A stretch of 64,000 bases of DNA from Octopus vulgaris (taxonomy: Eukaryota): assembly GCA_951406725.2 (NCBI GenBank), contig OX597827.1, forward strand, positions 43,338,001 to 43,402,000. The letters are read 5' to 3'. Within the stretch, counting starts at the first letter, position 1; each line of letters starts with the position of its first letter. Position numbers and translations under genes: made by a program. The notes under the pieces are model-generated. The model did no database searches, had not been told where the DNA came from, and worked only from the letters and a program-made list of their open reading frames with translations. Of this stretch, positions 4,273-56,029 are shown piece by piece.

Positions 4273-4550
4273 GCACACACATATAGACGAAATTAATATA
4301 GACTCCAATTTGCAATGCTTTACTAAAAAGGAAAGCTCAAGGGCAATAGCAGCGGTAAAGGGGTAGGGGACAGGGCTGAGAGGATGGTCATAGTGCTAAA
4401 AACAATCACACACACATACACACACGCACACACACACGCACACACACACACACACAGACACACAGATGCAAACGCATGCGAATATACGGATACACATTAT
4501 AGATGAACTTAATGGAATAAACGGAGCAAGAGCCACACACGAAGACGGAA

Positions 4551-4599
4551 ATTGTCGCTGAAGAGGTCACAGGTGTGTGACGAAAGATTTCCGGACAAT
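4551..4599 (+). ncRNA. Minimal type I hammerhead ribozyme (pseudo-LTR copy 1)
   Basis: ATTGTCG-CTGAAGA-G-GTCACA-GGTG-TGTGAC-GAA-AGATTT-C^-CGGACAAT. 6-bp helix II, 7-bp helix I with one bulge, near-palindromic helix III. Confidence 0.75.
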
Positions 4600-4687
4600 G
4601 GACATGGGTTAGAATAACGAGTGAAGAACGAATATATAGTGCGTGTGTTTATTTGGCAAAAAAAAAAACAATTACCATTCCGAAATA

Positions 4688-5076
4688 TGGAGTGGAAGCA
4701 CTCCGTCGGTTACGACGACGAGGGTTCCGGTTGATCCGAATCAACGGAACAGCCTGCTCGTGAAATTAACGTGTAAGTGGCTGAGCACTCCACAGACACG
4801 TGTACCCTTAACGTAGTTCTCGGAGATATTCAGCGTGACACAGAGAGTGACAAGGCTGGCCCTTTGAAATACAGGTACAACAGAAACAGGAAGTAAGAGT
4901 GAGAGAAAGTTGTGGTGAAAGAGTACAGCAGGGATCGCTACCACCCCCTGCCGGAGCCTCGTGGAGCTTTTAGGTGCTTTCGCTCAATAAACACTCACAA
5001 CTCCCGGTCTGGGAATCGAAGCCGCGATCCTATGACCGCGAGTCCGCTGCCCTAGCCACTGGGCCATTGCGCCTCC
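4688..5076 (-). mobile_element. Full-length tRNA-derived SINE family C (octopus OR-like) with TSD
   Basis: Minus-strand head GGAGGCGCAATGGCCCAGTGG (A box) and GCTTCGATTCCC (B box). TSD ATTCCGAAATA at 4677-4687 and 5077-5087; the empty site is preserved in the paralogous repeat near 6273-6285. Confidence 0.92.
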
Positions 5077-5180
5077 ATTCCGAAATACAACGCTATGTAG
5101 AAACACCTATATTGCAGAAATAAGAGTTGAAAAGCACTAATGCTGCAGGCAAAACATAATTTCCTATATATATATATACA

Positions 5181-5316
5181 CTGACAGGGACTGTAATCGT
5201 CCGGAAACACCGTTCGAGAATTACTCATACTGATCGGTCAGTTTCGGCAATATCCATTGTCTCATCAGTAAGGACTGGCTCGACTCCGGCATATTCCGGA
5301 CATATTTCTCTGTCAG
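5181..5316. mobile_element. 136-bp fold-back (MITE-like) element enclosing a hammerhead ribozyme
   Basis: Termini CTGACAGGGA...TCTCTGTCAG, inner inverted blocks GTCCGGAA/TTCCGGAC and TCGAG/CTCGA, TA-repeat flanks on both sides. Confidence 0.65.
5224..5272 (-). ncRNA. Canonical three-helix type I hammerhead ribozyme
   Basis: Minus strand CTTA-CTGATGA-GACAAT-GGAT-ATTGCC-GAA-ACTGA-CCGA-TCAGT-A^-TGAG. All core nucleotides present; helix II 5/6, helix III 5/5, helix I 4 bp extended past an internal loop by TCGAG/CTCGA. Confidence 0.88.
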
Positions 5317-5412
5317 TATATACGTTTTCCTCATAAATATCTATGGATGATTTAGCGAAATAGCTAATGTGTATTGAGGAAATTAATATGGACGAGCTCG
5401 GTTAATAGCATA

Positions 5413-5520
5413 ACGGTTAAAGTATTATCAACGCATAGAAATGATGCGACACTTTGACAGGCCATAGAAGCTACACATATAGCAATAGACCGACCGAGCC
5501 TCAACAGAAAACATGAATGG
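5413..5520 (+). pseudogene. Penelope-like GIY-YIG endonuclease C-terminal relic
   Basis: Manual translation TVKVLSTHRNDATL*QAIEATHIAIDRPSLNRKHEW, with the EA...P.LN pattern that ends Penelope-like ORFs; one internal stop. Confidence 0.55.
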
Positions 5521-5980
5521 AGCAATAACACCAACCACACACCACACAACATGATTACTAAAGACAGAAGGGGAAAAAATACCAGATACAAACTCTGTAA
5601 TACACACAATAGACAAATGTGTACATACCTATGATAAATATAAGAAATAGAGATAGCTATATAAAAAAAAAACTGTATAAAGGGCACGGATACAAACAAC
5701 ATAGGAAGCGAACCCATACACACACACAAACATACATACAGTAACTTCATAGACGACCGCAAAAATATCAATACGACCAGCAACGACTACAGCAACATCG
5801 GTAACAACAATAGCAACAACAACTACCACGATGGCAGTAGCTTAGGCGAACATACAAACACAGAGGGATACAGGAACGATACCAAAAGTGGGGCTCAAGG
5901 GCAGTAGCTGCAGCAACGGGGTAGGCGACAAGGCTGAGAGGAGGGTCACAGTGCTAAAACAATCACACACACTAAAACAA

Positions 5981-6023
<43 letters not shown>

Positions 6024-6121
6024 ACACACATACACAGACGCAAAGGCATGCGAATATACCGATACAGATTATAGAAGAACAGGATGGAATAAACGGAGCA
6101 AGAGCACACACGAAGATGGAT

Positions 6122-6170
6122 ATTGTCACTGAAGAGGTCACAGGTGTGTGACGAAAGATTTCTGGACAAT
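6122..6170 (+). ncRNA. Minimal type I hammerhead ribozyme (pseudo-LTR copy 2)
   Basis: ATTGTCA-CTGAAGA-G-GTCACA-GGTG-TGTGAC-GAA-AGATTT-C^-TGGACAAT; the core is identical to 4558-4591. Confidence 0.75.
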
Positions 6171-6593
6171 GGACATGAGTTGGAATAAGAACCGTAATAA
6201 AATAGTGATAGTGAAGAACAAATATATATGGTGCGTGTGTTTATTTGGCAAAAAGAAATGGAAAAGAAATTACCATTCCGAAATATAACGATACCTGTTT
6301 CAACACATGGTTTCACATCAGGAATATTGTAACACAAATTCATAAACGCATTTTGCAATGTTTTACCACAAAATAAATACTATAATTGTCACTAAATGTG
6401 ACTAGGGTGTTAGAAGCACCTACATTGCTAGAAATAAGAGCTAAAATGCTCTAATGCTTGGGATCAGCAGTACTTTATTATCTCCCTTTCTTTCAACCTC
6501 TTCTTTCAGACTCTTTTTAAAATCATTCGCTATGATTGACCGCTAAATCTATAAGTTTTTTCTCATTCTCTCTCTGTTTATTTTCTCTTATTC

Positions 6594-31278: not shown

Positions 31279-32170
31279 TATAATATTAATATAAACAGCC
31301 AAGGGCAATGTGGCACTATAACGGAAAAATTCAAACGCGATTAAGTGCGACTACAAATGCCGGAGCACCTACATTGCTGGGAATAAGAGTTAAAAGACTC
31401 TTAAGGCTGTAAGAAGTGCGTAGAATGTATATGCACATGCTAACAGGGGAGGCAACCGTCCCACGACCCACGACGTATGAATGCATGAATGCATGTATGT
31501 ATGTATGTTTGTATGTATGTACAAATGATCAAATCTCATTGGTTTTCGACGATAAGGCTTAAGTTGTTCGATCAACCGAACTCATTGATTTGGCTTAGCA
31601 GTAATCGAATATTTCGCAGGTACGTGTACCTTTAATGCAATCCTCAGGTAGAATCAGCAGGTTGCTCGGACGAAACTTTGAATCACAGGTGAAATCTGGT
31701 TGACAAATTTCGATAAAGTTTCCATCGATAGATGCTAACTCAGAAGGCATTTATTCCAAAAAGGTTATGGTAACTGTCTACCGCCCACCTCCACGCCTCA
31801 GGTGCCATATTGAGGGCTCGCATCCATTGTCCCAAGATTGCGAACCAAGCGTCCTTAAATGTTATTTAGTCATATCTCAGCCATACGCATGTGCACAACT
31901 ATTCACGCACACTCACACAAACGAACGCGCACGTACGCACGGGTACGGACGAATGCATACACAGTGTAAAGGGAGACAATCATACACTGGCATAGAACGG
32001 TAGACACAAAGTTGGAATCATATGACCGGTTGTCACGTGATATTGTGTCATGTGAGATGTTATCTGAGCAGGGAAGAAGCAAGCTAGGGTGCCTTTGACG
32101 CCTTACAATTTTGTAAACGACAATGTCATTGCCATCGTCTACGTCATCATCATCATAATATGCGTCGTCG

Positions 32171-33373: not shown

Positions 33374-33428
<55 letters not shown>

Positions 33429-34331
33429 ATATTAATATAAACAGCCAAGGGCAATGTGGCACTATAACGGAAAAATTCAATCGCGATTAAGTGCGACTAC
33501 AAATGCCGGAGCACCTACATTGCTGGGAATAAGAGTTAAAAGACTCTTAAGGCTGTAAGAAAAGCGTAGAATGTATATACACATGCCAATAGGGGAGGCA
33601 ACCGTCCCACGACCCACGACGTATGAATGCATGTATGTATGTATGTTTGTATGTATGTATGTTTGTATGTATGTATGTACAAATGATCAAATCTCATTGG
33701 TTTTCGATGATAAGGCTTAAGTTGTTCGATCAACCGAACTCATTGAATTGGCTTAGAAGTAATCGAATATTTCACAGGTACGTGTACCTTTAATGCAATC
33801 CTCAGGTAGAATCAGCAGGCTGCTCGGACGAAACTTCGAATCACAGGTGAAATCTGGTTGACAAGTTTCGATAAAGTTTCCATCGATAGATGCTAACTCA
33901 GAAGGCATTTATTCCAAAAGGTTATGGCAACTGTCTACCGCTCACCTCCACGCCTCAGGTGCCATATTGAGGGCTCGGATCCATTGTCCCAAGATTGCGA
34001 ACCAAGCGTCCTTAAATGTTATTTAGTCATATCTCAGCCATACGCATGTGCACAACTATTCACGCACACTCACTCACACAAACGAACGCGCACGCACGTA
34101 CGGGTATGCACGAAGACATACTCAGTGTAAAGGGAGACAATCATACACTGGCATAGAACGGCAGACACAAAGTTGGAATCATATGACCGGTTGTCACGTG
34201 ATATTGTGTCATGTGAGATGTTATCTGAGCAGGGAAGAAGTAAGCTAGGGTGCCTTTGACGCCTTACAATTTTGTAAACGACAATGTCATTGCCATCGTC
34301 TACGTCATCACCATCATCATATGCGTCGTCG

Positions 34332-54874: not shown

Positions 54875-55632
54875 TTAATTGTTTGTCGTAGACCCGTTAA
54901 GAAGTGGCTTGTATTTTGTAATAAAGAGATTTTCTTTACTTATTCGTTGTCTCGAGGTTGTATCGTCCCTAAATTGGTAGAGGGGGAAAATTCTGAAGTT
55001 TGGTGTTTTTTTGTTGGCGCAAGTATCTATGTGTTGCCTAAAAGCTATTTTTCTGTTTTGGGGAATTTTTATCTGGGATCTGTGCAGGGCCATTCGTTTA
55101 CGCAAACCATTTTTTGTTTGGCCTATGTACTGCTCTTGACACCCGGAGCAGGTTAGTGAGTATATTAGGTTCTCCGAAGCACATGTGAAGTTGCTTTTCA
55201 CTGTAAACCGTTGTCCCTGTTTGAAGGAGAACTCTGATCCCTCAATAAGATAGTCGCATATCCCGCAATTGGGTCTTCCACAGTTTTTTTACTGTCGGCT
55301 TCTGTGTTGAAGAGTGAATTCGGGCTTGTGTAAGGAGACTTTTCATGGATCTAGGCTGTCTTTTGCTTTTTATGATCGTGTGTGTTTGGAGGATTGTGTT
55401 CATTCTGTGGTCTTTTTTTAGGAGGGGTATGTTGTGGAGGATGGTGTCGAAGGCTTCGTTATTGAGAGGGTTGTGTGTGGAGATGTATGGTAAGGCTTTT
55501 GGTTGTAAGTTTTTCTTGGATTTGGGATGTCTCAGTTCCTTGATGTTAAGTTGAAGGGCACGTTGAATGCACTTGTCAATAAGTGAAGGTGGATAGTTCC
55601 TGGTGATTAGGGTATCTTTTAGTTCTTGTAGT
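54875..55632 (-). pseudogene. Penelope-like RT thumb/linker plus GIY-YIG endonuclease with one frameshift
   Basis: RLQELKDTLITRNYPPSLI...LPYISTHNP...KRQPRSMKSLL, a frameshift in the T-run near 55283-55290, then CGRPNCGICDYL...FTCASENLIYSLTCSGCQEQYIGQT...LRKRMALHR...KE..FI....PLLN. Confidence 0.9.
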
Positions 55633-56029
55633 CGTGTGTCTCTGGTGTTTGCGTATATATATATATATATACTCATATATATGTATGTATGTATGTTTAT
55701 GTATATATACACACATAAACACAAAGAAAATATATGTCCACCCATACACACATGTACAGTGAAAAACATATCAGATACATCCACCCAAAGTAAGACGGGA
55801 ATAAAAGCACACAGCTAAATCGCGAAAGTACAAGCCCTTTAAATATTCACTTACACAAAGACACAGGCACTGACACACATGCTCAGATTGTCACACGCAT
55901 ATACTCATGTGCGTATATTTACATCTACCCACTCAGCTTTACACGCAACACACACACACACACACTTAGACATATAAAGACTTGCATGCAGAAACACACA
56001 TGTACACACATACTGCATTTCGCTTAAGA

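Follow-up and report, generated by a model that had tools for sequence, protein, structure and literature searches.

The repeat analysed here has its closest described counterparts among the metazoan non-LTR retrozymes, for which the scheme of tandem transcripts that are cut by a hammerhead ribozyme and circularised has its basis in Cervera and de la Peña 2020 (PMC7229834). A link between animal non-LTR retrozymes and Penelope-like elements (PLEs) is argued in a preprint (bioRxiv 10.64898/2026.07.22.740005). PLEs themselves are described as leaving partial tandems and inverted 5'-truncated copies, with a 30–40-bp tail and a bias towards microsatellites (PMC8557442), and a palindromic helix III with its loop has been noted for metazoan type I hammerhead motifs (PMC4209133). 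In the in vitro work reported in PMC11167929, a lizard PLE started reverse transcription at two internal positions and extended both strands at AT-rich DNA; insertion proceeded from uncut RNA, ribozyme cleavage being dispensable. Within the giant squid genome, 235 Rfam hammerheads have been counted (PMC6962438).

We analysed a 64,000-nucleotide stretch of the Octopus vulgaris genome (contig OX597827.1; hereafter the window), together with copies of one of its repeats elsewhere in the genome (2.8 Gb, 227 contigs). Loci bearing such copies, or PLEs, are designated by L numbers.

A hammerhead-capped rod within a repeat unit of about 350 bases

Inspection of the minus strand of positions 5181–5316 revealed a full type I hammerhead core. 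The hammerhead (5222–5274, minus strand), delimited from the sequence, from pair counts and by comparison with the column majority of 29 copies, comprises helix I (5274–5269/5227–5222), the core CUGAUGA (5268–5262), helix II (5261–5257/5250–5246), GAAA (5245–5242), helix III (5242–5238/5233–5229) and a GUA triplet, with the cut predicted between 5228 and 5227. The window copy thus has all the parts by which a type I hammerhead is defined, namely CUGANGA, GAAA, NUH and helices I to III, with helix I open. A previous sequence-only reading of this DNA had reported every core base, a looped helix III of 5 bp and the same cut site, and on these points we agree with it: helix III measures 5 bp if A15.1–U16.1 is counted and carries a 4-nt loop, and prediction from the minus-strand core leads to the same position.

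Two mismatches are private to the window copy, at 5260 in helix II and at 5223 in helix I. The former, an A.C mismatch where 35 of 41 lineage-A copies have G-C, had been overlooked; the latter is a C.U (5273/5223) where 33 of the 41 have C-G. In the family consensus, drawn from lineage-A copies, a 6-bp helix I is followed by a CCAG/AUU loop and then by a 5-bp stem. The internal loop previously read as CCAGUC/UAAUU is therefore genuine as a loop, while its full size is in part due to decay of the window copy. The ribozyme region of this copy departs from the column majority of the 29 copies at 12 of 136 places, the mean difference among the 29 being 11.8%. Rfam Hammerhead_1, suggested earlier as a check, does not match the window copy; Hammerhead_3 alone does so, with 22.3 bits (E 0.022) where its gathering score is 48.5, and at the gathering score the copies at L005 and L077 give no match. 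The Rfam matches listed for the window as a whole are microRNA models on microsatellites, and are uninformative.

The arms on either side pair in blocks and continue helix I, as had been proposed, forming a rod with the hammerhead as its cap (5177–5320, minus strand) that covaries between lineages. Beyond the internal loop the rod has a 5-bp stem (5283–5279/5218–5214), two further stems and an outer stem of 11 bp (5320–5310/5187–5177), where compensatory changes are found. On the minus strand the fold-back of 5181–5316 exceeds 200 of 200 shuffles (z −4.27); the plus strand likewise folds back (z −5.28), and the value for the longer 5177–5320 on the minus strand is z −4.93. In the minimum-energy fold of the window copy, the core is paired with the 3' strand of helix III and there is no hammerhead, the hammerhead fold lying 6.9 kcal/mol higher. 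Over 55 copies this cost ranges from 0 to 22.5 kcal/mol, and the alternative pairing of core and helix III is the lower-energy fold in 54 of the 55. On these energies the window copy is predicted to favour an inactive fold and to be a poor cutter. Whole natural units folded as circles were weakly better than shuffles in six cases out of six (z −0.4 to −3.5). Since decayed copies break pairs, RNAalifold returned near-zero energy and an unusable structure for 29 copies, and a named structure was used in its place for pair tests.

CTGACAG...CTGTCAG, a perfect 7-bp inverted repeat with TA-rich flanks at 5181/5316, lies within the outer stem and had been taken for the termini of a MITE-like 136-bp element with a TA target and a hammerhead aboard. 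The genome yielded 340 candidate copies, of which 40 were scored and all 40 matched; the best other copy among those scored has 87% identity. When 29 other copies were aligned by BLAST, 27 ran past both of these termini, none stopped at both, and all 29 extended at least 30 bp beyond one terminus or more. The supposed flanking TA repeats are conserved unit sequence that lengthens the stem to 5177–5320, and the termini themselves covary, as the two strands of an RNA stem would. A TA duplication is absent, the bases next to the segment being CA on the left and TA on the right. We give the MITE virtually no credence. What survives of that reading is a non-autonomous, ribozyme-carrying, retrozyme-like element; its 136-bp extent and TA target do not. 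Extension of copies past the termini, which it had named as evidence against itself, does occur, into a protein-less unit of ~350 bp and not into any identified Penelope pseudo-LTR.

Direct partial repeats are present in 10 of 30 loci, with a period of 344–357 bp in nine, indicating a circularly permuted unit of ~350 bp. Within this protein-less unit, the 136-bp fold-back forms the inner arm, capped by the hammerhead. We numbered the unit along a profile of 353 positions, u1 being 5181 counted on the plus strand, which places the cut between u47 and u48.

The largest piece of the unit in the window (5098–5393, minus strand), identified by BLAST to natural copies and by profile mapping, covers about u275–353 and then u1–211. 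A piece with u191–246 (4282–4337, minus) starts at the usual RNA-3' end of the family beside a (CA)n/TA tract, and another with u213–322 (6348–6458, minus) continues the numbering from 5098–5393. Two inserts of another element, Z, both on the plus strand, interrupt the unit without breaking its numbering. One is a 3' fragment (5396–6347) with a GIY-YIG coding end at 5398–5538, a 3' UTR and its own hammerhead-like core at 6129. The other is a shorter 3' fragment (4335–4687), 81% identical to 5893–6286 and with a hammerhead-like core at 4558, whose last ~10 bp lie beyond the next insert. The latter, at 4688–5074 (unstranded), is young, abundant and putatively SINE-like, with 96% identity to copies in L010 and L015 and a 13-bp target duplication (4675–4687 and 5075–5087). 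On the simplest reading, the window copy is a passively decayed arm of 1.4 units into which other elements later inserted, at its two TA-rich sites or close to them; alternatively, the unit pieces and Z fragments may represent one complex insertion. Having a single ribozyme, the copy falls short of the two motifs by which "active" elements are recognised in bioRxiv 10.64898/2026.07.22.740005. Two further diverged fragments (67–87%) of the non-ribozyme part of the unit lie in the window at 31282–31448 and 33428–33584.

Covariation, core conservation and lineages

Pairing was evaluated on a named structure of 44 pairs, in an alignment (A2) of 55 of 61 ribozyme copies, six with large indels being left out. 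Paired cells amount to 87.4%, versus 30–42% when the structure is slid. Cells changed on both sides number 69 as against 35 in shuffles, and none of 500 shuffles is as high; the count of pairs showing change on both sides (21) is equalled by 46 of 500. As the copies are related, pair counts do not represent independent events. Because the lineage-B copies of A2 had been picked by core pattern, the counts were repeated on 40 ribozymes from independently picked loci. Helix I pairs in this set read C-G in 11 and U-A in 17, or U-A in 18 and A-U in 17; a helix II pair reads A-U in 27 and U-A in 8, and an outer-stem pair G-C in 12 and A-U in 14. Helices I and II and the outer stem have been rewritten in the source lineages with pairing kept. 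Helix III with its loop occurs in several lengths, perfect palindromes still being found in 17 of 96 copies.

Of the same 40 ribozymes, 23 have A and 12 have C at position 17, and 20 retain all 11 core positions intact. Non-CpG changes affect 25 of 400 core letters, 130 of 1,096 in helices and 337 of 2,363 elsewhere; 53 would be expected by base in the core, although profile alignment may favour core letters and the copies are related. These counts exclude L143, an antisense self-match. A comparison made on 29 BLAST-picked copies (2% versus 9%) is biased by the search seed and was left unused. We read the divergence as about 6% of post-insertion decay added to a diversity of source lineages that spares the core. 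That the core changed half as often as expected argues that cleavage was likely under selection in those lineages.

Locus L070 matches Rfam Hammerhead_1 at 45.5 bits, which passes the gathering score, and led to an older homologous lineage, C, with 45 candidates (profile E down to 2e-25). Its helix I reads ACACUG/CAGUGU in 13 of 20 loci parsed, with 8–13 of 13 paired per position, and the cleavage triplet is GUC in 8 of the 13 parsed loci. The outer-stem words were recovered in 13 of 20 loci, partly by construction, as they were sought with lineage-A words. Other Hammerhead_1 matches, at L071, L072 and L075, span 108 nt with a very long helix II and belong to a separate family.

None of the assembled RNA contigs listed spans the window copy, and such contigs cannot show ends or circles. 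The copy at L019 (924–1988) is situated within a 1063-nt intron, antisense to a gene that is well expressed, and is itself covered at low depth in assembled contigs; among sequencing runs on record, none was listed as holding this copy as RNA. Contigs at depth 565 and 416 derive from L298, where the copy has twin arms and a broken core and is probably a passenger in a host transcript.

Insertion ends and Penelope-like elements

A 31-mer located upstream of the ribozyme, at about u285–315, has 1,520 matches in the genome with up to three mismatches, compared with 191 for a 32-mer of the ribozyme; such an excess is expected from 5' truncation, and reversed control words for both gave none. In order to map ends irrespective of the ribozyme, we selected 89 arms at 87 loci by exact match to the 31-mer, and determined their ends by anchored extension, arm lengths from three-fold profile mapping being unreliable. 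The RNA-3' ends fall within u182–211 in 47 arms, within u245–250 in 15 and elsewhere in 27, so that 62 of 89 lie in two zones. Both zones are TATA-like words that for the most part border on (TA)n or (CA)n tracts, and the first zone is blurred as a result. The RNA-5' ends are ragged.

Sixteen of the 89 arms are longer than one unit, the longest measuring 539 nt, and no long arrays were seen among them; L094 has about 2.5 units and L019 has 1.5, with two ribozymes each. The cut site is reached by 32 arms and passed by 30, and the mapped arms show no run-off peak of ends there. With 19 ambiguous ends at the TA-rich base of the stem left out, the first arm of the rod holds 27 ends in 2,143 nt, a higher density than the 23 in 4,537 nt outside it (P 0.001). 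An inverted arm adjoins at 36 of the 87 loci, a clear twin-arm example being L298, and in all 36 the join is on the RNA-5' side. The ends of unit copies are permuted and variable, unlike those of an LTR pair. Fixed internal 3' starts, 5' truncation, an inverted arm and a microsatellite or AT-rich target are all found, and the insertion pattern of the unit is a Penelope-type footprint.

At four loci (L117, L102, L125 and L127) the arm breaks off where it enters the rod, and what follows directly is either the rod's other arm or an inverted copy, a pattern suggestive of template jumping over the hairpin. Locus L091 (4510–5450) has a young 360-bp tandem array, 99.8% identical, within a TA tract that ends an old arm; its core reads CCGAUGA, and the array has no homology to the old unit.

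PLEs are abundant in the genome, and many have open frames of 781 or about 1312 aa. The Z fragments of the window are on the opposite strand from the retrozyme unit and form a separate family. Relatives of Z have decayed reverse transcriptase (RT) and GIY-YIG sequence upstream, and an intact one has an RT plus GIY-YIG frame of 1312 aa, similar by blastp (E 2e-11) to an RT element of this genome in which Pfam recognises GIY-YIG. Since window positions 5395–5538 match the C-terminus of this frame at 60% identity, Z is, on sequence grounds, a Penelope-like element that carries a hammerhead-like core as well. The broken Z frames themselves gave no match to Pfam or PDB. In the Z family this core is placed ~200 bp from the element end (window fragments; L218–L236, L262–L266), and there are two fixed 3' ends ~60 bp apart that run into (TA)n. 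Its core position 9 is C in the young relative with the 1312-aa frame (L262) and the canonical A in old copies. A further Penelope-like RT and GIY-YIG fragment is present in the window at 54896–55652 (minus strand), with 57% identity to a protein of L193.

Searches with the unit profile and an RNA model (R1) found no PLE terminus resembling the unit in 30 GIY-YIG loci, nor did any appear in 16 ten-kb regions, 15 at PLE loci and one around L070; at one PLE locus there is a separate, diverged unit fragment upstream. Among the PLE loci examined we found no autonomous partner for the unit, that is, no RT plus GIY-YIG frame joined to the repeat. At L270 (4465–4700; also L208, 1–230) a diverged relative of the unit with another helix II lies just upstream of a truncated old PLE, and is possibly a further lineage. 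Five near-identical loci, flanks included (L033, L034, L037, L038 and L039; C6, C7, C31), have an RT fragment beside the repeat and constitute a larger duplicated block.

Origin of the family and relation to known systems

Taken together, we consider it highly probable that this is an old and decayed family of animal non-LTR retrozymes, cut by its hammerhead and copied into TA-rich DNA by a Penelope-like RT. The unit of 344–357 bp is non-coding and has one type I hammerhead, within the range of ~150–450 bp that characterises retrozymes, and its tandem copies take the form of partial tandems. Tandem transcripts would be cut at GUA or GUC into monomers of ~350 nt and ligated into circles, self-cutting at the hammerhead being likely. 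A Penelope-type RT with a GIY-YIG endonuclease would then nick both strands of a (TA)n target and begin internally at two zones of the RNA, about u193–205 and u247; the mapped ends make copying by such an enzyme likely. It would run through the cleavage site, for which a circle or an uncut multimer is an equally fitting template, and its stops would be more frequent at the entrance to the rod. The window copy may be viewed as a passively decayed arm of this kind, split by later insertions. Weighing against this reading are the absence of an autonomous partner at the PLE loci searched, the lack of long arrays and of a run-off peak at the cut site, the weakness of the circle folds, and the finding that insertion in vitro can dispense with cleavage (PMC11167929).

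The same footprint could have arisen if the unit were the pseudo-LTR (3' UTR) of an extinct autonomous PLE and the copies its 5'-truncated tails. Partial tandems, inverted 5'-truncated copies and a 30–40-bp tail are features of PLEs (PMC8557442), opposite-strand ribozyme pairs 100–700 bp apart are described for them in PMC4209133, and the preprint cited above presents retrozymes derived from pseudo-LTRs. We find this origin quite unlikely, given that the 16 arms above one unit re-enter the unit and not coding sequence, that no PLE terminus tested is similar to it, and that helices I to III are full, unlike the minimal metazoan PLE motifs described in PMC4209133. Another proposal concerns a single step and overlaps the others: uncut multimeric RNA might have spread, with the ribozyme acting only as a folded protein-binding or hitch-hiking motif. 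The passage of 30 of 32 arms through the cut site with no peak of ends, the dispensability of cleavage in the PLE assay (PMC11167929), the lack of cleavage in 8 of 9 Xenopus dimers (bioRxiv 10.64898/2026.07.22.740005) and the lower-energy pairing of core with helix III in 54 of 55 copies all fit with it. We nevertheless judge it unlikely, because three helices were rewritten around a core that itself changed about half as much as the remaining positions, and because 35 of 40 copies have A or C at position 17.

Beyond the retrozyme reading, we tentatively raise the idea that the superfamily documents, in fossil form, the evolution of a circular RNA under selection, in which at least four lineages rewrote helices and triplet within a fixed rod whose outer-stem sequence was kept, the rod being a roadblock that sets RT stops and twin-arm joins. 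Were this so, cleavage would be required in vivo for the spread of retrozymes, even though PLEs can insert in vitro without it, and the mobilising protein would recognise the conserved stem.

The locus itself is ordinary: the element is of a known kind, and this copy of it is decayed. As data, the family offers natural compensatory changes in three helices and a core under apparent selection. Its insertion ends agree with the mechanism of two starts and extension of both strands that has been demonstrated in vitro with a Penelope element (PMC11167929). The pattern supports the proposal, as yet unproven, that Penelope enzymes mobilise animal retrozymes, and names candidate start sites. Our searches, which covered the literature and not repeat libraries such as Repbase, turned up no description of this octopus retrozyme family, the nearest report being the giant squid hammerhead count (PMC6962438). 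The family itself is new; animal non-LTR retrozymes of such size are already known.

Indeed, the metazoan non-LTR retrozymes described in PMC7229834 have units of the same size (350–390 bp in mussel, 330/350 bp in axolotl), and share with the octopus family the lack of protein, one full type I hammerhead, low G+C, tandem or partial-tandem copies and the presence of PLEs alongside. The octopus family differs in being old and mostly shorter than 1.5 units, the comparison being one of descriptions and not of sequences; its helix III has 5 bp versus 1–2 bp in axolotl motifs, and its expression, cleavage and circles are predictions. The vertebrate retrozymes of bioRxiv 10.64898/2026.07.22.740005, presented there as non-autonomous derivatives of Penelope, likewise occur as dispersed monomers and partial tandems in a PLE-rich genome. 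In that preprint 24 of 57 Xenopus families match annotated transposable elements, mostly PLE pseudo-LTRs, whereas at the PLE loci searched we found no homologous pseudo-LTR for the octopus unit, and its link to PLEs is the insertion footprint.

With PLEs the unit has in common a type I hammerhead with a palindromic helix III and loop 3 (PMC4209133), inverted 5'-truncated arms and microsatellite or AT-rich targets (PMC8557442, PMC11167929), and two internal RT starts about 40–55 nt apart (PMC11167929); it differs from them in having no open reading frame and a full, not minimal, hammerhead. The type I topology and core are shared with Rfam Hammerhead_1 (RF00163), whose threshold the older sister lineage passes through L070, whereas the window copy and those at L005 and L077 differ from the model in helix II, loop 2 and a longer helix III. 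The cleavage triplet, compared with that of RF00163, is GUA in most octopus copies.
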